DNA from: Pseudobdellovibrionaceae bacterium
GTDB lineage: Bacteria > Bdellovibrionota > Bdellovibrionia > Bdellovibrionales > Bdellovibrionaceae
Length of the DNA: 60,263 nucleotides
Reading direction: 5' to 3'
NCBI GenBank assembly: GCA_043745515.1
Contig: JAYTTH010000316.1
Location: forward strand, 1 to 60,263
The notes under the pieces are model-generated. The model saw nothing but the letters and a program-made list of their open reading frames with translations, made no database searches and had not been told where the DNA came from. The position numbers and the translations under genes are program-made. Below, in pieces: positions 17,661 to 44,557 of the stretch (position 1 is the stretch's first letter; every line of letters starts with the position of its first letter).

Positions 17661-18503
17661 CTAGTGCGAACGAATACTTGCCAAGGTAGAATTTATCCAA
17701 TGGGCGTAAGGCACAATTCGTGTGTAAATCGAGTATCCACTACAGTCATTGCCCCCCGTTCCTGAGCCTCGGCTGGTGACACCCCAAAGTTGTAACTCGT
17801 CCTTCACCTTTATGAAGGCCGGTCCGCCAGAATCTCCATGGCAAGCACCGATCCCTTTGGTTTGATCAAGTAGAACTTCTGATGTACTAAAACGAGCATT
17901 TGAAATTGGAATTTCTACCACCCGCAATCGGCCAGCGCCCGTGGAGGAATTTCCATCACTCAGTCCGTACCCGGCCAAGATCGCCGTTTCATTATTTTTG
18001 AGAGGGCGCGAGGAAGGCAATAGTTGGGCTGGCCGAAAACCATTAGGCAGACCTCCAGAAAATTTAATGAGGGCTAAATCGCCAGTATTTTGCTGGGCGT
18101 TTTTATTTTTTTGCCAAAGCGGCGACACCCTAATCACATCCACAGATCGCAAATTTTTTTCAGACACCAGAAGTCCAAATTTTATTCGCAAATCGGCAGC
18201 ATTGCCTTCTGCACAATGGGCGGCTGTAACTAAAACATCCTCTGCGATTATGGAGGCCGTGCAAAGAGCGCCTTGCCTAATGTCAAGTAAACCAACAATA
18301 GATTCTTTAATTGGATCAGAGGCGCGTACTGATTTGCCCCCAATTATAAAATCTGTAACCTCATCAATCTGCCTGGTCTCTTTTGGATTAGTGACCGCAG
18401 TCGTTGTTTCATTGTTTGAATCCGGCTGACTGCAAGCAATCATCGACAGAAATATCCATGAAGCGATCCATTTTCTAATTTTAATATTTTTTTCTATTTT
18501 CAT
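17661..18503 (-). CDS. secreted trypsin-like (S1) serine protease lipoprotein
   Basis: Catalytic TAAHC (H), GDLALIKF (D), GDSGGP (S). Start at MKIEKN (AGGAG upstream) with lipobox SMIAC. The ORF is open to 18533. Confidence 0.85.
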   Translation of the reverse strand: MKIEKNIKIRKWIASWIFLSMIACSQPDSNNETTTAVTNPKETRQIDEVTDFIIGGKSVRASDPIKESIVGLLDIRQGALCTASIIAEDVLVTAAHCAEGNAADLRIKFGLLVSEKNLRSVDVIRVSPLWQKNKNAQQNTGDLALIKFSGGLPNGFRPAQLLPSSRPLKNNETAILAGYGLSDGNSSTGAGRLRVVEIPISNARFSTSEVLLDQTKGIGACHGDSGGPAFIKVKDELQLWGVTSRGSGTGGNDCSGYSIYTRIVPYAHWINSTLASIRSH

Positions 18504-18559
18504 AGTGTCTCCTAGTCTAGGAAGACTCTGCAAAAAAGTAACACAAAATTCTGATTAGA

Positions 18560-18620
18560 TTTCTGGAATTTACTTTCATTTTTCGGAATTACAAATGAAA
18601 TTCAAAATCTTTCCCGGAAT
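18560..18620 (-). promoter_or_regulatory. three TTTC-N(1-3)-GGAAT repeats upstream of the S1 protease gene
   Basis: TTTCTGGAATT (18560-18570), TTTCGGAATT (18581-18590), TTTCCCGGAAT (18610-18620). These are half-palindromic TTC..GAA cores spaced about 21 and 30 bp apart. Confidence 0.35.
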
Positions 18621-18623
18621 AAA

Positions 18624-20087
18624 TTAAATTTCCATTTGATGTTTTGGGGATGTGGTGTAGCGAACGGGAGCGGGCTTTTTTAATTGTGCACTTGCCGGTC
18701 GACGCCTTGGAAGTGACAATGAAAACGTGCTACCATTGCCTGGACCGCTTGTTGCGCGAACGGATCCACCATGAGCTTCAACTATTTTTTTAACGACCGA
18801 TAGACCCACTCCGGCGCCTTCATTGGCAGTTTTTCTTGCCTGCCAAAAATGATCAAATATTTCAGCTAATTTATTTTCAGGAATTCCTGGCCCACTATCG
18901 GAAACTGAAATATTAACAAATTGCTGGTCACTTCGCACCTTTACTATAACTTTTCCATGTTTAGGACTAAACTTGATAGCGTTGCCAATTAAGTGAGACA
19001 ATGCCCGGATGACTCGTTCGCGGTCCATGAAGGCCAAGACCGGAGGATTGGCCGATTCAAATTGAAGTCTAACGTCATTTTTCTTGGCCAATGGTTGCAA
19101 CATTAATTGGGCGTCGTCTAAAATTTCATCAATTGCCATTTGGTCCAATCGCAAATTAAGACCATCAAGAATTGCAGTTTTTTGATCACAAATATTTTTT
19201 ACTACTTTATCAATTTCATTCACTGTGCTTTTGATCAGCTCACCACTGTCTCTTACTGAGCTTGAATCAGAAAAATCATTCAAAAATTCGGCGATTTGGT
19301 GTAAATGACCCATCGGCTCTTTAAGATCATGCGAAATGGCGGAAACAAACTCGTCTCTAATTAAAATTGCTTTTTGAGCTTCACTATAGAGCCGGTCTCT
19401 TTCGGCTGTTTGTTGCTTTCTATCTGACAATACTCGAAGAATTAAAAAAGCCATTCCGAAGAATATAAAAATTAGGCTTCCAGTCAGCCAGGCCATTCCT
19501 CTTGGAATTTGCTGTTCAAATCCGGCCGCGGCGCTCTGAGCCTCGCTGCGAACACGTTCCAATTCGGCATTCTGAATTTTAGCAATATCATCTAGACCTT
19601 CATTAACTTGTTTAAGCAGCGAAACTGTTTTTGATTGGTAAAATTGTCCGACAATTTTTGATTCCGTCTGTTTTTCGCGATATTCCATTGCTTGATCAAA
19701 AAATTCTTGTTGAAGTTGTTGTGACGCGCCCATTTTATTTATAATTTCAGGAATTTGAGGTAACGAATATTTTTTTTCAAAATTGGACAGCGCTTCCGCA
19801 AGCAGCTGTTTGTCCAGTTTCTGTTTATCAAATAAAACTTTGGATCCAAGTAAAAAGAATGAACGACTATTGGCAACTTGCGATTCTGCCAAATATCTAA
19901 TTCGCTCAATATCCACAAGCGCAGCTGAATTGACTATCGCCACTGCATTTTTTGCCATGATCGCTTGACGTAATTTAAAAGCGTAGCCCCAAGCTCCAGA
20001 AAGCACGACTACAAAAAGAACGAGCAAAACGATTAAAAAATTCTTCTCTATATTGGATTGATTTGGCTTGTTTATGTTTTTATTCAT
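18624..20087 (-). CDS. sensor histidine kinase (CHASE3-like periplasmic domain)
   Basis: N-terminal TM, an extracytoplasmic helical domain (ANSRSFFLLGSKVLFDKQ), and a second TM. H-box SHDLKEPMGH. G-boxes DSGPGIP and GAGVGLSV. Start at MNKNINK. The ORF is open to 20126. Confidence 0.85.
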   Translation of the reverse strand: MNKNINKPNQSNIEKNFLIVLLVLFVVVLSGAWGYAFKLRQAIMAKNAVAIVNSAALVDIERIRYLAESQVANSRSFFLLGSKVLFDKQKLDKQLLAEALSNFEKKYSLPQIPEIINKMGASQQLQQEFFDQAMEYREKQTESKIVGQFYQSKTVSLLKQVNEGLDDIAKIQNAELERVRSEAQSAAAGFEQQIPRGMAWLTGSLIFIFFGMAFLILRVLSDRKQQTAERDRLYSEAQKAILIRDEFVSAISHDLKEPMGHLHQIAEFLNDFSDSSSVRDSGELIKSTVNEIDKVVKNICDQKTAILDGLNLRLDQMAIDEILDDAQLMLQPLAKKNDVRLQFESANPPVLAFMDRERVIRALSHLIGNAIKFSPKHGKVIVKVRSDQQFVNISVSDSGPGIPENKLAEIFDHFWQARKTANEGAGVGLSVVKKIVEAHGGSVRATSGPGNGSTFSLSLPRRRPASAQLKKPAPVRYTTSPKHQMEI

Positions 20088-20288
20088 ACAGACGGAATAG
20101 CAAGTGCGTTTACTATGAGCAATCAATTTTTTGCTAAATGAAACTGAGCGGGGTCTCGCCCAAAATTAAATTTATAATCATGCACTAAATCATTCCCTAC
20201 AGCTAAAATTTACGACAATAATTGCTACTATTGAACCAATTTAGGTTGCCCAGTCTTTAGTTTAGTTTTTCGAGTCTTTTAACTACTG

Positions 20289-20459
20289 TTAAATCTCCAA
20301 ATCTAATCGTTCACCATCAAAGAAAGAAACCCCTCTCGCGGCGTGAGGCTTTCCGTCACGCTCTGCATTTTATTTGAAAGTTGCGACTCTGCCCATAGTA
20401 ATATATTGAATGTGGCGAATTACTCGTTTTGCAAAATCTGAGATAGTCATTCTGATCAT
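20289..20459 (-). pseudogene. relic of an MGMT/alkyltransferase-like (YbaZ/Atl-type) gene
   Basis: Minus-strand frame M(IR)MTISDFAKRVIRHIQYITMGRVATFK*NAERDGKPHAARGVSFFDGERLDLEI*. It fits the iP.GrV.TYG.iA...G.P.aARaVG signature. There is an in-frame TAA at 20370-20372, and the relic stops before the PCHRV active site. Confidence 0.5.
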
Positions 20460-20587
20460 GGGGTCTCAGGAAACTTGATATTTTCAACTAGTCGAAAGAA
20501 AAAAACTGAATTCTTTTGCATTTTTAGAACCAAATATTTTCTGAAACTCGACTATCCATTTCGTCGTCATTACCCTAAACTGTTTCT

Positions 20588-21049
20588 ATGTCCTCTATGA
20601 CAAAAAAAAAGCAAGTAATAGTTCTCAATGGCTCAATTTCAAGTTACACAGATTTGCCTCCTTTGGAAAATATCGAAAACACATCCATTTTAGAAATCCA
20701 CTTTGGTCCGAATATTTTTTTAAATAGCACTGGAATACGCGATTGGATCCTTTGGCTAAGACCTGTTTCACTAAAGCCCGAAATTAGAATTGAGTTTTAC
20801 GAATGTTCTTTCAGTGTAATTTTGCTAGTGAATATGATTTCAAGTTTTAAACCCGCAAACGGCAAAATCATTTCGTTTTATGTTCCCTATTTTTCAGAAA
20901 ATACAGGTGAGTCCAAAAAGATCCTAATGCAAGTAGGTGTTGACGTCATAGACGGTAAATTTACGCTTCCAAAGGTCACTGACAGCGAAGGCCACACGAT
21001 GGAATTGGATGTAGATGAAAAGAAATTTTTTAAATTTCTAAATTCCTAA
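20588..21049 (+). CDS. STAS-like protein with conserved C-terminal extension (paralog A)
   Basis: 153 aa. FLNSTGIRDWILWL resembles the STAS/SpoIIAA DSSG-loop region. Shares SFYVP(Y/F)FSE, DS(E/K)G..MELDV and (F/Y)F.FL with the 21073-21543 product. Confidence 0.6.
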   Translation: MSSMTKKKQVIVLNGSISSYTDLPPLENIENTSILEIHFGPNIFLNSTGIRDWILWLRPVSLKPEIRIEFYECSFSVILLVNMISSFKPANGKIISFYVPYFSENTGESKKILMQVGVDVIDGKFTLPKVTDSEGHTMELDVDEKKFFKFLNS

Positions 21050-21072
21050 GCCGGACACCCTGTTCAGGAGAT

Positions 21073-21543
21073 CTAACGTCGCTTCAAAAATGAAAAATAT
21101 TTTATTGGATTCACATCCAGTTCCATATATTCGCCTTTGGAATCTTTAATATCTGGGATCCTTAAAAATCCATTTATTTGATAGTCCTCGCCCAAATGAA
21201 ATAGAACATCTTTCCGCTCTTGTGACTCTTCACTAAAAAATGGCACGTAAAAGGACTTTACAGTAATTAAGTTAGTAATAAACCCACTAATTTTACTAAA
21301 ATTATTTACAAATACAAAAGGGCATTCTTCTAAAGTTAAGTCTTTGAATTCCTTGTTTTCCTGAATCCATTTACACCAAATTCGAATTCCATAAGAATTG
21401 ATTAAGGTTATTTTTTTCATATTTATAGACAAGGGCTTCGATTTATCAATTGGCGGAATAACAATATGTTCGTTTAGAGGTCCTGAAAACGTCCAAATAT
21501 TTTCTGTTAAATTGGAAGTAATTACGCATTTGAATTGATCCAT
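21073..21543 (-). CDS. STAS-like protein with conserved C-terminal extension (paralog B)
   Basis: 156 aa. LINSYGIRIWCKWI motif. Paralogous to 20588-21049. Lies 6 nt downstream of the kinase-like gene. Confidence 0.6.
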   Translation of the reverse strand: MDQFKCVITSNLTENIWTFSGPLNEHIVIPPIDKSKPLSINMKKITLINSYGIRIWCKWIQENKEFKDLTLEECPFVFVNNFSKISGFITNLITVKSFYVPFFSEESQERKDVLFHLGEDYQINGFLRIPDIKDSKGEYMELDVNPIKYFSFLKRR

Positions 21544-21549
21544 ATCCCT

Positions 21550-22383
21550 CTACTCAGTGTATATATGCAGGTTTTTTGGCAATTGACTTCGCGAGGCTGA
21601 ACTCAACTTATACGCAAACGAACAGCAAACTAAAGTTTGAATTCCTTGTTTGACTCCGATATAGACACTTGCAGCTGATTCAAAAATCATAAAAGCGCCA
21701 ATTCCGGCACCACCACTAGAATAGTTAATTACGTTAGACAGATCGCTGTCGTAACATTTTTTGATTCGAGCCAAAAGTCGTTCAACATTTAAAGTGCCAA
21801 ACTGATCCTTGCAACCAAGCACAATGCGGGCGCCGTCGTTCCCAACAAACATATAGGGACGCTTAGAGCTATCAATTCGAACATTGCGAAAGTCTCGTTC
21901 AACTCCTGGATTTTCGTTATTAAAATCCATATAGGGCGCATTGTAAATTGCGTTAGTAAACAATTCGTCAGCCGTATTCAAAACTTCATACAACAATGAA
22001 GAGGCCTTAGTAAGGCCTTTGATATAATTTTCGATTTGCGCCAAAACATTGAATTTGTCGGTTGGGTTATTAATATCAAAGAAAACCCCTTGAAGTTTTT
22101 TTTCGGATGCTTCATCTGGATTTTCTTGTCCAAAAATTGCAGACAAAGGAAAAGAGAAATATTTATCTGGGTCCTTCGCCATTTTTTGAGCCAGAGCTAT
22201 TTCTTGGGCGTGAGCCAGATTTGATTTTTGAACAAAGTGTCGGATTTTCTTGTTTAGGCACATTTGTAAAATTGTTTGTGCAGAAGCATTGTCAGTGAAT
22301 ATAAAATCTCCCAAGTTTTCTTCAGGGTGAATTTCATCTATATTTAAACATTTAATTCCTGGAACATCGAATTCATCGGGCAT
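21550..22383 (-). CDS. GHKL/anti-sigma-factor-kinase-like protein (SpoIIAB/RsbW-like C-terminal domain)
   Basis: 277 aa. ADELFTNAIYNAP fits the N-box E..TNAi.H. KDQFGTL fits the DxGxG region. SSGGAGIGAFMI fits the G2 box (compare GMGFTIM in SpoIIAB). The N-terminal 130 aa or so are unassigned. Confidence 0.55.
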   Translation of the reverse strand: MPDEFDVPGIKCLNIDEIHPEENLGDFIFTDNASAQTILQMCLNKKIRHFVQKSNLAHAQEIALAQKMAKDPDKYFSFPLSAIFGQENPDEASEKKLQGVFFDINNPTDKFNVLAQIENYIKGLTKASSLLYEVLNTADELFTNAIYNAPYMDFNNENPGVERDFRNVRIDSSKRPYMFVGNDGARIVLGCKDQFGTLNVERLLARIKKCYDSDLSNVINYSSGGAGIGAFMIFESAASVYIGVKQGIQTLVCCSFAYKLSSASRSQLPKNLHIYTE

Positions 22384-22464
22384 GTCAGAATTAAATCATT
22401 GTCGCGGACTCTTATAAAGCAAGTAAATCAAAACCTAGACAGATGTCGATATAAATGCATTTAA

Positions 22465-23250
22465 CTAATCTATTTCTATTTTTTTAGCGAATACGGGCAG
22501 TATAAAAATTGAACCCAGCAAGCAAAATAGAAAAAAGAGACTCACAAATTTGAAAATCTTTGCAAGTCCAGCTGATATTTTATTATTTTTTGCTAAAGTC
22601 TCGAAACTTGTTACGTAGATAATTTCACACGCTCCATTTTCAATGTCTGTTCTAACCACACTTGTTTTTCTTGGCGGTCCTTCGTTAACGCTGTAGTTTA
22701 CAAGTTGCCCTGAAATATGAATCTCATCTCCGATCTTTGAAGATGAAATGAGTTTTTGAATTTCAATATTTTCGGGAATTAGATGGTTATTTGAAAGCTG
22801 GTTTATTTGAAACGATTGCCAAACACTTAAACTATTTGTGCTGGCATAGCAGGTCCAAGCGCCATGGTTAAACGACATTTTGGAAAGATTTGGGTTTAAA
22901 ATATTGGCACCCCAAATTACGCAAATGTCCTTTGTGTTGATAAAGTCATTCCAAGCTTCATGAACAGTGTCGGTCCAGCTATTCGATTCATGGTCGGCAA
23001 CAACTAGACCCCAGATTTCATAATCGAAAACTGGCTCAATTTTGTAGGAGTGGCCATTTGCTTTGGTGATAAACGGCTTTTTTGTAGTTGGGGTCTGCCG
23101 CGGCTCCCTTTGAAGCAGATCGCCCGATTCAAAGCGACTAGGAAGTTTAACCATATACCAAGAGCTTATTGCCCAAAGACAACTCGAAATGACCAAAGAT
23201 TTTATTAAAAAAAGCGACCAGCTAACATTATACTTCATTCTTGAATCCAA
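22465..23250 (-). CDS. membrane protein anchored at both termini, function unknown
   Basis: TM segments near both ends flank a domain of about 190 aa (WTDTVHEAWNDFINTKDICVIWGANI). No family recognised. Same strand, just upstream of the kinase-like gene. Confidence 0.6.
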   Translation of the reverse strand: MDSRMKYNVSWSLFLIKSLVISSCLWAISSWYMVKLPSRFESGDLLQREPRQTPTTKKPFITKANGHSYKIEPVFDYEIWGLVVADHESNSWTDTVHEAWNDFINTKDICVIWGANILNPNLSKMSFNHGAWTCYASTNSLSVWQSFQINQLSNNHLIPENIEIQKLISSSKIGDEIHISGQLVNYSVNEGPPRKTSVVRTDIENGACEIIYVTSFETLAKNNKISAGLAKIFKFVSLFFLFCLLGSIFILPVFAKKIEID

Positions 23251-23350
23251 TTTTTTATTCTATCCAAAGTTTAGATCCAAAACTTTTTAAATACCAATTC
23301 TTTTGGCTCCATGCTCCAATGTGCCTAAATTCTCGGGAAGATGCGGTGCC

Positions 23351-25139
23351 ATGAAAAGTTTGTCTTTAACTCTACTTAAAAATGAAACCGTTCGATCTGC
23401 AAAACGATTTCCCGTGACCTTTCTTTTTGTTTTAATAGCCACGGCCACTCTTATAACAATGAGCGAAATGCATTTCAAATTCAACGAAGGGCATCCTCTG
23501 ACTGAACATGCTCGTTTTAATTCTGGCTTTCCCGATTTCATTGGCCTTTCATCTTATTGCAGAGAGCAAGCCTAAATGGCTTGCTGTGCCTTCAAAGTGG
23601 GTTCCCTATTTATCTTTTATTCCATTGCTCGCTTTTTTTAGCTGGAGGCAAACCCACTATGGCGCGGGGGAATGGATTCGCTACTTTCACTGGGTACTTT
23701 ATAGTCATCTTCTGGTTGCGTTTGCTCCATTTTTGCGGGTCTCAAACTCGCGAGAATTTTGGAACTTCAACTACTCACTATTTATTAATTTTCTAATTAG
23801 TCGATTTTTTGGATTATTTCTTTGGGCCGGTTTTAGTTTAGCGCTGGCGGCCGTGGGAGCGCTGTTAGAGATACCTATATCATCGGAAATCTATTTCAAT
23901 TTATCCTCACTATGCCTAGTTTTAATTTCTACGCTTCATTTTTTGGCCCTGATGCCTGAATCAATCAATTTTGATGAAGTACGGCCAAGGCTATTAAAGA
24001 TTTTCTGCCAATATATATTGGTTCCACTCAACGTCACCTATATCGCCATTTTATATATTTATTTAATTAAAATTCTGATTACTGGTGATTGGCCAAAAAG
24101 AATGATTTCATGGTTGGTGTCTGGTGTTTCCATACTGGGAGTTTTTGCGCTTTTGATGATGGCGACCTTTTTTGACCAATATGAAACCCGGTGGATGAGA
24201 AAATTCCAATCCATCTACTATATAAGCATAATTCCGTTGCTAATTATGGGGCTTGTTTCTCTTTTTCAACGAATTGACCAATATCGATTGACCGAAAAAC
24301 GTTATGCTTTAATTGCTTTAAGTCTTTGGCTCATTGGAATTGCAGTTTACAATTTGATCTCAAAAGCAAAAAATATTTTAGCAATTCCAGTTTCGCTATT
24401 TATTGTATTATTGTTCACATCTTATGGTCCCTGGGGAATGTATCAAATGTCCTAGCTGAGTCAAAAGTCACGACTAGTAGAACTACTAGAAAAAAGTGAC
24501 GCCATTAAAAACGGATTTTTAGGCAAAAGCAGCAAAGATATTTCGCCGGACGACGCAAAAGAAATTATTCAAATTTTAGGCTATTTGGTATACTTTCATG
24601 GTTCAGAACCCCTTCCCTCGTTTTTTACCAAAGAAGATGCTGCTGAATTAGTTAGAATCTCAAAAAAAGATTCAAGCTACTTGATCTACGACGAAGTAGG
24701 TAATTTTATGGAAAAGCGACTTGCCTTACCACACGGCCTTTACCTAAACAAGGGCGATGATCTTTCAAAATATGTTTATTATGATAACCAAAATTGCATG
24801 GTTCAGTTAAGTAAAGATTTACTATTTTTTAGATTTGATTCGGGACACGTAATCTATCCTTCAGTTGGCACGGGGAAATCTTACGAATTGTTCATAAGCG
24901 ATTCAAATTTTACCATCCAACTAAAAGAAAACGGAAAAGTCATTTTTGACCACGATTTAAAGTCTTTCGTAGCGGAAATAATGGATTTGGATTCCGAGCA
25001 AAAGAGCATTGCTTGGACATTTAATGCTCAAGGCCTTGAAGTAACACTCATCCCGCAGCACATTTCTGCCGACAACTACGCAAAGGGGCTTAGAAACCTA
25101 TCGTTTACAGGCTCTCTTTTGGTACGATTTTTAAAATAA
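23351..25139 (+). pseudogene. DUF4153-like polytopic membrane protein, disrupted
   Basis: The N-terminus MKSLSLTLLKNETVRSAKRFPVTFLFVLIATATLI is in frame 2, and the body (23508-24455) is in frame 0, so a frameshift lies near 23480-23510. An in-frame TAG at 24453-24455 is followed by 43 stop-free codons that run into the 24585-25139 ORF in the same frame. Confidence 0.65.
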
Positions 25140-25162
25140 ATAGACAAGAATAAATAGACAAG
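25135..25162 (+). repeat. perfect 14-bp tandem duplication AATAAATAGACAAG x2
   Basis: Copies at 25135-25148 and 25149-25162. The first copy contains the stop codon of the upstream reading frame. Confidence 0.9.
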
Positions 25163-25208
25163 GTCGAGTCTTTTGCTATTATCCCTTCTGCATAATCCAG
25201 GAGACTAA

Positions 25209-25838
25209 ATGATTCGAATTATTTTATTCCCAATACTATTTTTAATTTCCATATCAGCACTAGGGGCCGAAAAGGAATTAGAGTTAAAAATGAATCCAAA
25301 TGGTCAACCGGTTTTTGGAATTCAATATGCCTATGACTACGATTTTGCTTGGGCCTTTACCTTTACGACAACTCTTTCCAATTTGGATCTAGAATCCATA
25401 CCAAATACTGTTTTTTGGAATGTCCTACAATCCAAACAAAACAATCTTGTTTTTTCATGGAAAGAAATTAGTAAAATTGCATTACAAACCGGAACTATTA
25501 GCCTTCGAGACAAATCCGAAGTCAGTATTTTACTGCCAAATTTAAAAACGGCAAAGGTTGTTTTTGCACTTAAAACGCACCAGGGCACGTTTGAAATTCT
25601 TTATTCAATCCCGATCGGTCCGCTTTGTCAGAACTTTTCGACAAATCACTTTGTCGATATGACAAATTCATCAAAAAAGGGATGCGATGTGCAGGCCAAA
25701 GATATTCCGGACGCTCAGGCAGAGTGCCATTCCTGGGCAGAGGAACTTTTAGATTTCGTTCATCAAAAGCTAATCTCCTGCGCCACGGCAAAAGCCCATT
25801 TTGCAACTCGTGGCTGCGGCACTTTGGTCTGTCAGTAG
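25209..25838 (+). CDS. secreted protein, function unknown
   Basis: Signal peptide MIRIILFPILFLISISALGA. GGAGA Shine-Dalgarno. Cys-containing C-terminal region. No family recognised. Confidence 0.6.
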   Translation: MIRIILFPILFLISISALGAEKELELKMNPNGQPVFGIQYAYDYDFAWAFTFTTTLSNLDLESIPNTVFWNVLQSKQNNLVFSWKEISKIALQTGTISLRDKSEVSILLPNLKTAKVVFALKTHQGTFEILYSIPIGPLCQNFSTNHFVDMTNSSKKGCDVQAKDIPDAQAECHSWAEELLDFVHQKLISCATAKAHFATRGCGTLVCQ

Positions 25839-27059
25839 ATGTCTGACGATTCACTTTTACAATGTCCATCGCTGATACCAAAGATTGCGCTAAATCGTGA
25901 TATCACTAAACATTTGAAACGCGGTCATCGTTGGATTTTTGCAAATTCATTTGATGAAAAAGCCAAAGTGTCTTCAGGTATTTCATTTTTGACCTATAAA
26001 AACGAACTTTTGGGTCTTGGTGTCGTTCAAGCGGATACCCAGCTGCGATTTCGTCTGTTTGTATTAGCTGATGAAATTTATTTTAAAAAAAATAACCCTC
26101 AAAAAACCCTATCCCAATGGGCTAACATCCAGTGGGAAAAAGCCAGTCAGGTGCGATTGTCATTGGATAGTACTGTTACCAATTCTTTTCGGCTATCTAA
26201 TGGCGAGGGAGATGGAATGCCGGGACTTATCGTCGATATTTACAATAACACGGCCGTAATAAAACACGATCATCCCATTATGGAATCCATTTGGGATAAA
26301 CATGAAATCGCCAAGCAAATTGTATTGCTGTACCCTTACATTAAATGCGTGTATCTAAAACGCCGAAATGACGATGACGTTAAAGGTGAAAATGTTTTAG
26401 GCACTTTGGCCGAAGAGACCATTTTCAAGGAAAACAATATGTTGTTTGCATCAAATATTCGCGATGCTGCTAAAACAGGATTTTTCTTAGACCAACGGGA
26501 CAATCGACATTATCTGAAGAATTTTTCAAAAGACAAATCAGTTTTGAATCTGTTTAGTTACACTGGCGGCTTTTCAGTATTCGCCGGAGCAGGCGGCGCG
26601 CGATCGGTCACCAGCGTAGACATTGCAAAAGTGGCTATTCAAGCAGTCCATCGAAATTTTGAAATTAATAATCTAAAAACCCATACTCAGAATATTGCTA
26701 CAGACGCCTTTGCTTACGTTGAACAAGAAATTAAATCAAAAACAAAATTTGATTTGGTTGTCACGGATCCACCCAGTTTTGCCCCTAATGAAAAATCAGT
26801 TCCGCAGGCTACGGCGGCCTATACTAAAATTTATTCTGATTCTTTAAAATTAGTTAAGGCTAATGGACTATTTGCCGCAAGTTCGTGTTCAAGCCATATT
26901 TCAACCCAGGCTTTTTTAGACATTACAAAGGAATCGTTTTCGAAGTCGCGGCTTCGAGGAACCATCATACATATGGGTGCACAGCCCTTTGACCACCCCT
27001 TTCCGCTTGCCATGGAAGAACTGCGCTACCTAAAGTTTGCATTGTTCAGAGTCGATTAG
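25839..27059 (+). CDS. rlmI: class I SAM-dependent 23S rRNA m5C methyltransferase, RlmI-like
   Basis: Colinear with E. coli RlmI: KRGHRWIF (PUA-like N-terminus), GEGDGMPGLIVD, KTGFFLDQRDNR, FSYTGGFSV, VVTDPPSF, SCSSH. Confidence 0.75.
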   Translation: MSDDSLLQCPSLIPKIALNRDITKHLKRGHRWIFANSFDEKAKVSSGISFLTYKNELLGLGVVQADTQLRFRLFVLADEIYFKKNNPQKTLSQWANIQWEKASQVRLSLDSTVTNSFRLSNGEGDGMPGLIVDIYNNTAVIKHDHPIMESIWDKHEIAKQIVLLYPYIKCVYLKRRNDDDVKGENVLGTLAEETIFKENNMLFASNIRDAAKTGFFLDQRDNRHYLKNFSKDKSVLNLFSYTGGFSVFAGAGGARSVTSVDIAKVAIQAVHRNFEINNLKTHTQNIATDAFAYVEQEIKSKTKFDLVVTDPPSFAPNEKSVPQATAAYTKIYSDSLKLVKANGLFAASSCSSHISTQAFLDITKESFSKSRLRGTIIHMGAQPFDHPFPLAMEELRYLKFALFRVD

Positions 27060-41548: not shown

Positions 41549-44500
41549 ATGACCGTTAACAAAAATTTACCCAGCTCTCCATTGGATAAAAACAACGAGG
41601 AGCGCCTTTTTAATCGCTTACACTATACCATTCTTGGCGCGGTGATTATTTATATTCCACTGTTTTTTTGGATGGGCGCTCGGGAATCAGCGATGTTTTT
41701 GTTTCTTAGTCTTGTCCTATTAAACTCATCGATTTTCATTCTATCCCATACTAATAAACCGGATATTGCACGATTGTTGTTAATTTTTACATGCAATTTA
41801 GATTTATTTATTTGCTCGCTTGGCGTAGGTCATGTCGGTCTGCTTCAACTTTATAGTTTTCCATTCATGGCAATGAGTTTGTTTCTTTTTAAATCTAGAA
41901 AATGGAATTTTGTAATGTGCGGTGGTTTTTTATCGGTTGCCTCTGGCGTGCTTGTTTCACTAAAGTTTCTGAGCACTGTTGTGGAACACAAGCTGCTTGA
42001 TAACGCTCAGTCGGACACGTTTGCTTTGTTCAATTTTATTGGGTCTTCGCTGATGACGGGTTCCTTTTTCTATTTTTTCGTTAAAGACTATGTGAAAACA
42101 GACAAAATTCAAAACGAACGGGGTCGCCTTTTATCCATACTTGACGCTTCGCCGGATTTTATTGGAATAGCTGATATGCAGGGAAACCTGAAATACCATA
42201 ATCCCTCTGCTAAAAAATTGATTGGATTACCCAATGATGCTGACATGAGTAATCTCAATATCAAAGACATGCACCCCGAATGGGCTGGCAAACTTGTTGT
42301 AAGCGAAGGGATTCCAATAGCCATGTCTGGTCGACCTTGGCGCGAAGAAACGGCATTGCTTCATCGTGACGGACACGAAATTGCCGTTTCTCAAGTGTTG
42401 ATGTTACATCGCGATGAAAATGGCGATCCCGAGTACCTTTCGACGGTCATACAGGATATTACCGAAATTAAACGAAAAGCGTGTGAAGAAAAATTGGCTC
42501 AAGATATCGATCGGTTTTTGGCAACTGCCAACGATCCAAATGAAATCTATCGCGAAGTGTGTCGTGCGGTCAGTCAGTTTTTTAACTTTTCGATTGGAAT
42601 TTATTGGAAGCTTAGTGAATCGGCTACACATTTGGAGTTTTCTGAATCGTTCAATACTGATGATCAGGCGCATAAAAAGTTTGTTAACGATTCAAAAAAA
42701 TATTCTTTTAAATTGGGCCAAGGCCTACCTGGTCGAATCTGGATGAAAAGAGAAATTGTAGAATGGGAAAATTTAAACAAAGACGAATCATTTTTACGTA
42801 AAGATTTAATTAATTTAAATAAAATTACTTTTGGATTTGGCTTTCCTATTTTGTTTGAGGGGCAATTTTTTGGCTGTTTTGAATTCTACTCTAGCGGTCA
42901 GATTAAACTAACAGAGAATTTTACCCAGACTTTAGCTGGTATCAAAAAAAGAATAGCCCAGCGGATTATTTACCTACGCTCCGAGTACAAACTTAAAAAC
43001 AACGAGCGAAGACTCAAATATGCACTCGAAGGATCCAATGATGGAATGTGGGACTGGGATTTATTGACCAATGAAGTCTATGTTAGTGAAAAACTATCCC
43101 GGATTTTCGGAGACTCACAAACAATTCGACTGGGGAAAACGCACACACGAGACGGAATAATTCACCCTGAGGATCTTAAAAGAGTAGACGTTTCAATGCA
43201 ACTACACCTTAGTGGTCGAACTGAATTTCATGAAGTGGAAACACGAATGAAAACTTTAGACGGAAATTATGTTTGGATTTTAACTCGCGGGAAAATAAGT
43301 GAGCGTGATCTAACGGGCAAACCTATTCGAATGACTGGAGTTCACATCGATATTCAGCGAATAAAAGAAATTCAATTAAAATTGGAAGAGGCTGAAAAGC
43401 TTGCGACGTCGGCCGCAAATGCCAAAGCTGAATTTTTAGCAACCATGAGTCATGAAATTCGCACGCCCATGAACGGCGTTATTGCAATGAGCGGCCTGCT
43501 GCTAGAAACGCCACTCAATCCAGAACAAAAAGAATTTGCTAATACAGTAGTTCAATCGGGAAAAACTCTACTTATGTTAATAAATGATTTGCTCGACTAT
43601 TCAAAGATTGAAGCAGGGAAAATGGATATCGAAGAATTTGAGTTTGATTTCAACTCGTTTCTACGCGAGTTATCAAAGCCATTTTACTATTCCGCTGAAA
43701 AGAAAAAAATTAAATTCGCTATTGAAACAAAAAGTTTTAAGAAAATGATAAAAGGCGATTCAGGCCGTATTGGACAAATAGTTAGCAATCTAGTATCTAA
43801 TTCTATTAAATTTACTAAAGACGGTGAAATTCGTATCAAGGCCGATTTAGTCGAACAAAGAGACACTACCCAATTAACTTTATTGGTAGTGGATACCGGC
43901 ATGGGTATTCCTGAATCTGCAAAGGCCAGAATGTTTCATGCATTTTCACAAGCTGACAATTCAATCAGTCGCCAATTTGGTGGCACGGGACTAGGTTTAT
44001 CAATATCCAAACGCCTTGTAGATCTAATGAACGGCGAAATTAGTTTTGAAAGCGAAATCGGCAAGGGCACTACTTTCAAAGTCACCCTGACTCTTAAAAC
44101 AGGAACTGATATTTCACAAGAATACCATCCAGAAATTCTGCAAGAAAAAAATCAAGTCGGAGGGCGAATATTGGTAGCAGAAGACAACCCAGTCAACCAG
44201 CTTATCATTTCAAAACTGCTCGAAAATTTGGGTTGTAATTATCTTGTAGTTTCCAACGGCAACGAGGCTTTGGATGCGCTCAGACTGTCGCCTTATGATC
44301 TGATATTGATGGATTGCCGGATGCCTGAAATGGATGGCTATGAGGCCACGGCCAATATTCGCCGTTCAGAGACGTTAGAAAGTAAAATACCAATCATCGC
44401 TTTGACTGCCAACGCTTCCAAAGAAGATGAAAACAGATGCAAAGCAGCCGGAATGGATGCCTATTTGACCAAACCGGTTGCGAAAACCGATCTTGAAAAA

Positions 44501-44557
44501 ATGCTAAGACGATTTATTTCCGAAAGCGCAAAAACTAGAGGCTCCGGAGCCGCCTAG
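41549..44557 (+). CDS. hybrid sensor histidine kinase / response regulator (multi-TM, PAS-GAF-PAS)
   Basis: N-terminal 5-6 TM segments. PAS (DFIGIADMQGNLKYHNPSA), a GAF-like region, a second PAS (NDGMWDWDLLTNEVY). H-box SHEIRTPMNG, HATPase GTGLGLSI, C-terminal receiver (ILVAEDNPVNQ, DLILMDCRMPEMDG, LTKP). Confidence 0.9.
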   Translation: MTVNKNLPSSPLDKNNEERLFNRLHYTILGAVIIYIPLFFWMGARESAMFLFLSLVLLNSSIFILSHTNKPDIARLLLIFTCNLDLFICSLGVGHVGLLQLYSFPFMAMSLFLFKSRKWNFVMCGGFLSVASGVLVSLKFLSTVVEHKLLDNAQSDTFALFNFIGSSLMTGSFFYFFVKDYVKTDKIQNERGRLLSILDASPDFIGIADMQGNLKYHNPSAKKLIGLPNDADMSNLNIKDMHPEWAGKLVVSEGIPIAMSGRPWREETALLHRDGHEIAVSQVLMLHRDENGDPEYLSTVIQDITEIKRKACEEKLAQDIDRFLATANDPNEIYREVCRAVSQFFNFSIGIYWKLSESATHLEFSESFNTDDQAHKKFVNDSKKYSFKLGQGLPGRIWMKREIVEWENLNKDESFLRKDLINLNKITFGFGFPILFEGQFFGCFEFYSSGQIKLTENFTQTLAGIKKRIAQRIIYLRSEYKLKNNERRLKYALEGSNDGMWDWDLLTNEVYVSEKLSRIFGDSQTIRLGKTHTRDGIIHPEDLKRVDVSMQLHLSGRTEFHEVETRMKTLDGNYVWILTRGKISERDLTGKPIRMTGVHIDIQRIKEIQLKLEEAEKLATSAANAKAEFLATMSHEIRTPMNGVIAMSGLLLETPLNPEQKEFANTVVQSGKTLLMLINDLLDYSKIEAGKMDIEEFEFDFNSFLRELSKPFYYSAEKKKIKFAIETKSFKKMIKGDSGRIGQIVSNLVSNSIKFTKDGEIRIKADLVEQRDTTQLTLLVVDTGMGIPESAKARMFHAFSQADNSISRQFGGTGLGLSISKRLVDLMNGEISFESEIGKGTTFKVTLTLKTGTDISQEYHPEILQEKNQVGGRILVAEDNPVNQLIISKLLENLGCNYLVVSNGNEALDALRLSPYDLILMDCRMPEMDGYEATANIRRSETLESKIPIIALTANASKEDENRCKAAGMDAYLTKPVAKTDLEKMLRRFISESAKTRGSGAA

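Follow-up and report, generated by a model that had tools for sequence, protein, structure and literature searches.

Results

Gene organization of the locus

The window analysed here, the whole 60,263-nucleotide stretch (positions 1 to 60,263, forward strand) of contig JAYTTH010000316.1 in assembly GCA_043745515.1 from a Pseudobdellovibrionaceae bacterium, encodes between 20588 and 22383 three proteins that we interpret as a putative partner-switching module. K (21550..22383, minus strand) is a 277-aa putative serine kinase of the GHKL type that resembles SpoIIAB/RsbW and carries an additional N-terminal domain, S1 (21073..21543, same strand as K) is a 156-aa STAS-like protein, and S2 (20588..21049, plus strand) is a 153-aa STAS-like paralog convergent with S1. 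The gap between K and S1 measures 6 nt, and that between the convergent S1 and S2 measures 23 bp. A preliminary description of this DNA, made from its letters and open reading frames (ORFs), had already pointed to the three genes, and their coordinates, strands, lengths and gaps were all recovered as it gave them. The motifs it had singled out (ADELFTNAIYNAP, KDQFGTL, SSGGAGIGAFMI, LINSYGIRIW, FLNSTGIRDW, SFYVP[YF]FSE and MELDV) could each be located in the predicted proteins, and the paralogy of S1 and S2 that it proposed is borne out by 33% identity (E = 5e-23).

K, S1 and S2 are real genes and not chance ORFs. In the closest relative, a Pseudobdellovibrionaceae metagenome-assembled genome (MAG) whose locus we refer to as L006, the gene order is identical and the sequence 94% identical, and the ratios of nonsynonymous to synonymous substitution rates (dN/dS) between the two are 0.042 for K, 0.052 for S1 and 0.109 for S2 (dS ~0.65), indicating purifying selection; because these ratios are low, we consider all three genes functional. 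Furthermore, a purine-rich, Shine-Dalgarno-like GAGTAGAGGG (21546..21552, minus strand) overlaps the K stop codon just ahead of the S1 ATG, which suggests that K and S1 are translationally coupled. Scanning 18400-23700 revealed promoter-like sites no commoner than the shuffled expectation, and neither a terminator nor repeats in the 23-bp spacer between S1 and S2, while an Rfam scan of the whole window gave no match. GC content is 0.355-0.379 over 20001-26000, a region comprising the module and its neighbours, versus about 0.39-0.44 in much of the window, amounting to a minor dip.

K is predicted to adopt a GHKL kinase fold

From an alignment of 22 sequences, AlphaFold (AF2) produced a model of K, which was compared with the PDB by Foldseek and reached a predicted local distance difference test score (pLDDT) of 86.6 and a predicted template modelling score (pTM) of 0.86. 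Its top matches are SpoIIAB (1til_E, 1l0o_A and 1th8_A; target template modelling score, TM, 0.74-0.78, probability 1.00) and RsbW (6m37 and 6m36; target TM 0.70-0.76, probability 1.00), followed by PDHK/BCKDK, CheA-P4 and HK853, and the other top matches are all GHKL kinases. Neither K nor S1 (see below) was placed outside the fold predicted for it, K falling among GHKL and S1 among STAS proteins.

The order of the SpoIIAB/RsbW-type boxes, which the preliminary description had read in the C-terminal half of K, was likewise found in register by hhalign. The N-box D139-E140-L-F-T-N144-A-I-Y-N148-A-P150 (21934..21969, minus strand) aligns with SpoIIAB at E = 0.0037, setting K DELFTNAIYN on SpoIIAB SEAVTNAIIH (S45-E46-A-V-T-N50-A-I-I-H54); E140, N144 and N148 thereby pair with E46, N50 and H54, in agreement with the suggested replacement of His by Asn. 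The G1-box region G190-C-K-D193-Q-F-G196-T-L198 (21790..21816, minus strand) is in register with the DDGxG of a neighbouring CheA-like HATPase_c kinase, and the G2-box G224-G-A-G-I-G229 (21697..21714, minus strand) with its SGRGVG. An extended K profile aligned with the HATPase_c domain of this neighbouring kinase over G1, G2 and the final G-T strand (hhalign, E = 0.023), which places G1, G2 and G3 in register. Residues ~211-223, just before G2, form a low-confidence ATP-lid, with pLDDT 61-64 over residues 211-230.

Across 237 K sequences E140, N144, D193, G196 and G229 are invariant (100%), and G225 and G227 are 97% conserved. We take the conservation of the key residues of K, and of those of S described below, to be decisive for function as far as alignments can tell. 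Modelling shows K to have a predicted SpoIIAB/RsbW-type GHKL fold in which the hallmarks of ATP/Mg binding are all conserved.

Preceding this fold, residues ~1-105 (22069..22383, minus strand) make up a family-specific alpha/beta domain in the AF2 model, with pLDDT 90-97 from residue 31 on. It is acidic (isoelectric point, pI, 4.8) and carries P79 in 96% and Q52 in 82% of the family. Searches of Pfam, NCBIfam and PDB sequences gave no match for this domain, and no relative of it was detectable; a comparison of K with the S profile by hhalign, bearing on whether it might be a degenerate STAS domain as in CapK, showed no similarity (probability 0.3%).

S1 and S2 share a STAS-like core with a conserved serine

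For S1, the AlphaFold model (56-sequence alignment, pLDDT 94.6) was matched by Foldseek foremost to the STAS antagonists 4hyl, RsbV (6m36_B) and SpoIIAA (1thn_B/1th8_B), at probability 1.00 and target TM 0.57-0.69, and MlaB-type STAS proteins are also among its fold matches. The predicted phospho-acceptor loop N49-S50-Y51-G52 (21388..21399, minus strand) opens helix 50-62 of the model, and its equivalent in S2, N46-S47-T48-G49 (20723..20734, plus strand), shares an alignment column with S50 of S1. In profile comparisons iNSvGiR of the S family aligns with ymDStG of RsbV, ymSSaG of 4hyl and ymDSaG of TM1442 (E ~0.04), and S50 is kept in 143/145 S sequences, as is G52 (143/145), with N49 in 141/145. 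The proposal that NSxG stands in place of the phosphorylatable loop is therefore upheld, since the motif aligns with the DSxG phospho-serine of RsbV-type proteins and its serine is nearly universal. Modelling and alignment thus give S1 and S2 a predicted STAS fold in which a conserved serine occupies the canonical phospho-acceptor position, together with an extra C-terminal module.

Sequence models of known families detect S faintly: the best Pfam STAS match (E 0.0055, obtained in 7/56 members) and the best match to TIGR00377 (ant_ant_sig; E 0.028) are below curated thresholds, and the NCBIfam slr1659 superfamily regulator is matched at E 9.8e-5, S1 scoring 13.5 bits versus a cut-off of 100. 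The S family comprises 67 clusters with members of 153-167 aa, unlike the single-domain antagonists of about 100-120 aa.

S2 matches the A3 profile (E = 6.5e-49) and is a member of a separate, conserved S subfamily distinct from S1. Genes of the S2 type adjoin K orthologs in L006, L008 and L064 (in the latter two in the order S2>K>S1>), and another precedes a divergent second K in L010. Because this subfamily adjoins K orthologs in L006, L008 and L064, the trio of one kinase and two STAS proteins is, judged by these sequences, an old and retained arrangement and not a recent accident.

The C-terminal extension of S resembles a zinc-ribbon module

In the AF2 model, residues 93-156 of S1 (21076..21267, minus strand) constitute a beta-hairpin-rich two-knuckle module devoid of cysteine, seen as a pair of beta-hairpins with strands 97-104 and 109-117 plus short strands; hairpins of this kind suit a zinc-ribbon topology. 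In homologues the columns of S104 and S107 contain Cys in 61/145 and 56/145 cases, respectively; CxxC...CxxC at the hairpin turns is present in 37/149 (~25%) and the first knuckle alone in 19/149, and zinc-ribbon-type Pfam models match a few family members. Within the window the knuckles lack Cys (FSEES...KDSKG in S1, FSENT...TDSEG in S2), and none of the S copies examined from the canonical operon described below has knuckle cysteines. The extension is strongly conserved, with its SFYVP and MELDV motifs, and mildly acidic (pI 5.2-5.8). It may best be described, from model and alignment, as a two-knuckle module of the zinc-ribbon type, without metal in the greater part of the family, and the extensions of S1 and S2 appear to be degenerate, metal-free zinc-ribbon derivatives at best. 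Of the claim that the paralogs carry a novel shared extension, the sharing and conservation thus stood, whereas the novelty gave way to a zinc-ribbon-like module whose cysteines have been lost here.

K and S form a large, linked family in Bdellovibrionota

A word-indexed search recovered only 23 clusters of the K family, and an exhaustive profile search retrieved 2,422 K cluster representatives (clusters at 50% identity) at E<=1e-3, 375 of them at E<=1e-30, almost all 250-300 aa in length. To survey gene context we scanned one genome per GTDB species, which yielded 99 K relatives and 79 retained loci (given here L numbers); all 79 derive from Bdellovibrionota MAGs, labelled Bdellovibrionales, Pseudobdellovibrionaceae, Bdellovibrio sp., Bdellovibrionia or Oligoflexia. 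Where public records give family proteins a name it is always 'hypothetical protein', except for one S homologue called 'anti-anti-sigma regulatory factor' by the Joint Genome Institute (JGI), and we found no publication on the K-S family in the literature on Bdellovibrio partner switching, STAS or anti-sigma antagonists and slr1658/slr1659. The K-S family is large, unannotated and so far met only in predatory Bdellovibrio-like bacteria.

The retained loci and the window together hold 90 K genes, two of which are at contig ends and were excluded, leaving 88 assessable. S lies within 2 kb of K in 82 of these (93%): directly downstream on the same strand in 58, in a single ORF with K in two, and in another arrangement in 22; six K genes have no S nearby. 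This answers the question, raised by the preliminary description, of whether the two kinds of gene co-occur across genomes. End-to-end fusions of K and S were found in the database proteins P0194, P0206 and P0212, and fusions are also present in L057 and L076. The trees of K and S agree in their paralog groups, the window K grouping with those of L006, L007, L008, L009 and L064.

Several loci carry tandem or head-to-head duplicated K-S cassettes (L016, L017, L019, L021 at 7.7-10.8 kb, L001:6001-8709, L010, L011/L013 and L018). Up to three K genes occur in one locus, several genomes supply two or three separate loci, and a divergent K subclade has the reversed gene order, S then K.

Relatives embed the pair in a signalling operon

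Neighbours within 5 kb of K were clustered and then annotated with Pfam in 80 loci. A canonical operon of about 30 species emerged, consisting of [HAMP- or PAS-]SpoIIE/PP2C > K > S > PAS-Hpt-HATPase_c kinase > REC > REC-DnaJ, with median gaps, in gene order, of -4 (PP2C to K), 9 (K to S), 1 (S to the CheA-like Hpt kinase), 17 and 69 nt. The PP2C family is represented near K at 28 of the 80 loci, the CheA-like PAS-Hpt-HATPase kinase at 36 and REC proteins at 37. In L063, L071, L081 and L082 the operon takes a variant form, PP2C>K>S>REC>HDOD>histidine kinase (HisKA-HATPase), and a paralog group nearer to the window (L014-L021) shows S< K> Hpt-kinase> PP2C< REC<, with the REC gene directly upstream of the PP2C gene in the L014 group. 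Furthermore, K is fused to PAS-GGDEF in one protein (584 aa, L085:949-2703, plus strand), the only such fusion among 150 listed representatives, beside which lies a divergent Cys4 zinc-ribbon S gene (L085:327-785, minus strand), and the K-S fusion P0194 (455 aa; L086:5235-6602, plus strand) adjoins a 1,698-aa Pkinase-AAA_16-GAF-SpoIIE/PP2C protein (L086:44-5140, minus strand).

Consequently, the label 'orphan' that had been attached to the module holds for the window, where a hidden Markov model (HMM) of 28 neighbour PP2Cs detected no PP2C in 60 kb, but not for its relatives, which carry PP2C, CheA-like kinase and receivers in the same operon. As to sigma factors, a search with RpoE/SigF baits, made with no positive control, detected no sigma-70-family ORF either in the window or, at 84 loci, within 10 kb of K; the family is also absent from the conserved neighbours of K in the clustered loci, and a Pfam scan of the remaining window ORFs had no sigma factor among the best 25 of 47 families listed, a weak ECF sigma still being possible.

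The last gene of the canonical operon encodes an unusual 643-aa response regulator with an N-terminal REC, a J-domain (DnaJ) and possibly TPR repeats (L024:13697-15625, plus strand, and 22 other loci); as an output, a J-protein under REC control would be out of the ordinary. Genes for HPPD, a homogentisate dioxygenase-like protein and RibD are syntenic just upstream of the operon in many species (L025, L026, L031, L033-L036 and others), which probably reflects conserved synteny rather than a functional link.

Neighbours of the module in the window

Adjoining the module is a transmembrane HisKA+HATPase_c histidine kinase (18624..20126, minus strand; Pfam), its only recurring neighbour within the window. 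Full-length homologues of this kinase adjoin K-S in L006 and L053, and homologues of its catalytic core end the variant operon in L063, L071, L081 and L082. The kinase could be a partner in signalling, though an unproven one.

Between S2 and this kinase lies the remnant of an MGMT/Ogt-like (PF01035, DNA_binding_1) pseudogene (~20322-20459, minus strand). It corresponds to residues 1-46 of an intact 123-aa gene product in L006 (L006:8986-9354; 74% identity) and is interrupted by an in-frame stop, the rest having been lost to a deletion of 138 bp. As the remnant fills most of the gap, the real spacer 5' of S2 shrinks to ~128 bp, and the 460-bp upstream region formerly credited to S2, as a dedicated regulatory region, is ruled out.

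Upstream of K, a protein of 261 aa (22465-23250, minus strand) that has a hydrophobic, presumed transmembrane, segment at either end had been suggested as the input. Its conservation is confined to L006 (84% identity, dN/dS 0.195) and it has no significant family match, the best being NF010398 at E = 5.6e-4, far under the cut-off; with this single homologue among 80 loci, it is ruled out as a family-wide partner.

Directly past it, on the other strand, a DUF4153 membrane protein (23508-24455, plus strand) is followed by ORFs of 184 aa (24585-25139, plus strand) and 209 aa (25209-25838, plus strand), neither of which matched Pfam or NCBIfam. A 1,002-aa hybrid sensor kinase (41549-44554, plus strand; two to three PAS, GAF, HisKA, HATPase_c and REC) is the only receiver protein detected in the window.

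Discussion

A probable divergent partner-switching module and its rivals

Folds, motif register and the co-occurrence of K and S all support the reading already proposed in the preliminary description, and we consider it likely, with a probability of roughly 0.7, that K, S1 and S2 constitute a lineage-specific, highly divergent partner-switching module that operates with the overall logic set out here. K would bind unphosphorylated S and, with ATP, phosphorylate Ser50 of S1 or Ser47 of S2, a PP2C encoded elsewhere in the genome would remove the phosphate from S, and the phospho-state of S would decide which of K or S is free for an output protein. Since the window contains no PP2C, reversibility at this locus is assumed to be provided in trans. 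The window copy would be a satellite of the canonical operon, in which one kinase serves two competing STAS substrates or antagonists and a dedicated phosphatase is absent. Co-transcription and probable translational coupling would have S1 made stoichiometrically with K, and S2 might be expressed separately from its own promoter region, such that a second input could shift the S:K ratio.

The output is probably not a sigma factor. A non-sigma output would most likely be a two-component kinase or phosphorelay, and in some lineages a diguanylate cyclase, contacted through a surface supplied by the family-specific N-terminal domain of K or the C-terminal module of S; any specific output that one might name for the module is doubtful.

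Several points weigh against this reading. The fold assignments of K and S rest on AlphaFold models and not on experiment, and none of the sequence-based family assignments of either protein (Pfam, NCBIfam, PDB) is significant: K as a single sequence has no match in Pfam, NCBIfam or PDB, its profiles of 22 and 150 sequences retrieved nothing from the PDB at E<=10, its hhalign support stands at only E = 0.0037 and 0.023, and the STAS matches of S, at E 0.005-0.1, fall short of significance. Moreover, the G1-box of K reads DxxG instead of DxGxG, and the missing PP2C of the window deprives the locus of a phosphatase. Because sequence and profile searches of K were empty, its assignment to GHKL relies on structure prediction together with motif register, and because even the 150-sequence profile found no PDB match, the K family is, by this measure, beyond the reach of current sequence models.

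The best surviving alternative, which we nevertheless regard as unlikely, keeps the same components but follows a logic like that of CapK/CapS or SiaC and not that of an anti-sigma factor; here S itself is the effector by means of its C-terminal module and K is a sensor kinase only, sequestering nothing. The N-terminal domain of K would then sense the signal, and phosphorylation would switch the oligomeric state or target binding of S, the target being a nucleic acid or a protein, for example the histidine kinase encoded alongside. Such a role would give meaning to the extra, strongly conserved C-terminal module of S, with its SFYVP and MELDV motifs, and to the PAS-Hpt-HATPase kinase gene that follows S at a median gap of 1 nt, and it has precedents in CapS (STAS fused to a winged helix-turn-helix, wHTH) and SiaC-SiaD. 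On the other hand, the pI of the extension and the zinc ligands it mostly lacks argue against nucleic-acid binding, and the K-PAS-GGDEF fusion puts the output domain on K, not on S. This alternative and the partner-switching reading differ only in the protein that touches the output.

A second possibility is that K is a non-phosphorylating ATP-binder, a pseudokinase or ATPase clamp, with S as a constitutive subunit, as MlaB is for MlaF, and with a purely structural serine. An atypical G1, the failure of canonical HATPase_c Pfam models, a locus without phosphatase and the MlaB-type proteins among the fold matches of S1 all fit this view; it is nonetheless quite improbable, as conservation reaches 97-100% at the residues that matter (catalytic Glu, Mg-binding Asn, adenine-binding Asp, G2 glycines), the serine of NSxG persists in nearly every S sequence, and the family recurs in operons with PPM/SpoIIE phosphatases, joined to them through overlapping start and stop codons; in connection with STAS proteins, such phosphatases are known for dephosphorylation. 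Least credible of all is the view that the genes are a mobile module for toxin-antitoxin activity or defence against phages, like CapK/CapS-VapC. The multi-copy modules, duplicated within genomes, and the recruitment of a CapK/CapS-like pair into a toxin-antitoxin system (PMC13373217) might point that way, but PADLOC gave no significant match (PtuA at E 0.0044 and 13.9 bits, Csm2 at E 0.027, which is noise), the conserved neighbours are signalling proteins with no toxin or nuclease among them, and the locus is syntenic with L006 and shows but a modest GC dip (0.355-0.379 over 20-26 kb, compared with ~0.40 elsewhere).

Significance

Partner switching is a textbook mechanism of bacterial decision-making, and ~2,400 clusters (50% identity) of kinases resembling those of partner switching have escaped annotation. 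The family pairs a kinase bearing an extra domain with a zinc-ribbon-tailed STAS protein, adding two new accessory domains, and the modules of its relatives are wired to HAMP-PP2C, PAS-Hpt kinase, receivers and REC-DnaJ, not to a sigma factor. If the partner-switching mechanism is true, it would offer a way into the signalling of predatory Bdellovibrio-like bacteria, about whose regulatory circuits little has been learned, and another case of partner switching with a non-transcriptional output. More speculatively, and only as a tentative extension, there may be a hitherto unrecognised, Bdellovibrionota-wide class of phospho-switches that gate His-Asp phosphorelays or cyclic di-GMP synthesis directly and do not control a sigma factor. 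In such a class the N-terminal domain of K and the zinc-ribbon-derived module of S would act as new surfaces for binding outputs or inputs, and the several paralogous K-S cassettes of a genome, the phosphatase-less satellite of the window among them, would cross-talk in a network fed by one or a few PP2Cs, possibly controlling stages of the predatory life cycle. The K and S alignments could also seed new family models for genome annotation.

Comparison with known systems

In Bacillus, the pairs SpoIIAB-SpoIIAA and RsbW-RsbV are accompanied by the PP2C phosphatases SpoIIE, RsbU and RsbP. K and S share with them the predicted GHKL kinase and STAS folds, the Bacillus pairs being their best structural matches; the conserved serine of S, as in SpoIIAA and RsbV, belongs to an xSxG loop and opens helix alpha2; and the kinase and STAS genes are adjacent, with a SpoIIE-family PP2C in the operons of relatives. 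In contrast to the Bacillus systems, no sigma factor was found near K in the window or in relatives, by a search that had no positive control, K has an extra N-terminal domain of ~105 aa and S an extra C-terminal module of ~60 aa, both have diverged so far in sequence that the Pfam models HATPase_c_2 and STAS fail on them, the loop is NSxG and not DSxG, and G1 of K is DxxG.

SiaABCD of Pseudomonas aeruginosa consists of the HAMP-PP2C SiaA, the kinase SiaB, the STAS-like DUF1987 protein SiaC and the diguanylate cyclase SiaD. Relatives of our module show the same order of phosphatase, kinase, substrate and output enzyme and a HAMP-PP2C phosphatase in the operon, and the one K homologue fused to PAS-GGDEF recalls the cyclase output. 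The mechanism of SiaC, with its non-sigma output, has been described (PMC8457831), and SiaABCD, HsbA/HsbD and BgrV/BgrR provide examples of non-sigma outputs or of STAS proteins with C-terminal output domains (PMC8457831). Unlike SiaABCD, neither K, S1 and S2 nor their homologues match the SiaB or SiaC (DUF1987) families (Pfam/NCBIfam, E<=1), and the fourth gene of the canonical Bdellovibrionota operon is a PAS-Hpt-HATPase kinase and not a cyclase, the window copy having no such fourth gene.

A further parallel is the two-gene cassette, without sigma factor, in which CapK, an HTH-STAS-GHKL kinase of the anti-sigma type (HTH, helix-turn-helix), phosphorylates CapS, a STAS-wHTH repressor (PMC13373217). 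Here too a kinase with an N-terminal extra domain is joined by a STAS protein with a C-terminal extra domain and no sigma factor, whereas K has an alpha/beta domain in place of HTH-STAS, S has a Cys-less zinc-ribbon-like module in place of the wHTH, and the context is one of signalling and not of immune operons, with no PADLOC matches.

Partner switches fed by two-component systems are represented by RsbK-RsbY-RsbV-RsbW of Bacillus cereus and HptB-HsbR-HsbA of P. aeruginosa. As in these, relatives have Hpt kinase and REC genes beside those for PP2C, kinase and STAS protein; unlike them, REC and PP2C are separate proteins, the kinase and STAS protein carry extra domains, and a REC-DnaJ protein belongs to the operon. 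Multiple antagonists, for instance the mycobacterial RsfA/RsfB and RsbV1/RsbV2 of Chlamydia, find their counterpart in the two STAS paralogs and single kinase of the window clade. That systems with several antagonists per kinase exist is stated in PMC10950880. Taken by gene order and phosphatase architecture, the K-S system, which by sequence belongs neither to SiaABCD nor to CapK/CapS, is closest to SiaABCD, and, taken by its combination of a kinase with N-terminal extras and a STAS protein with a putative C-terminal effector, it is closest to CapK/CapS.

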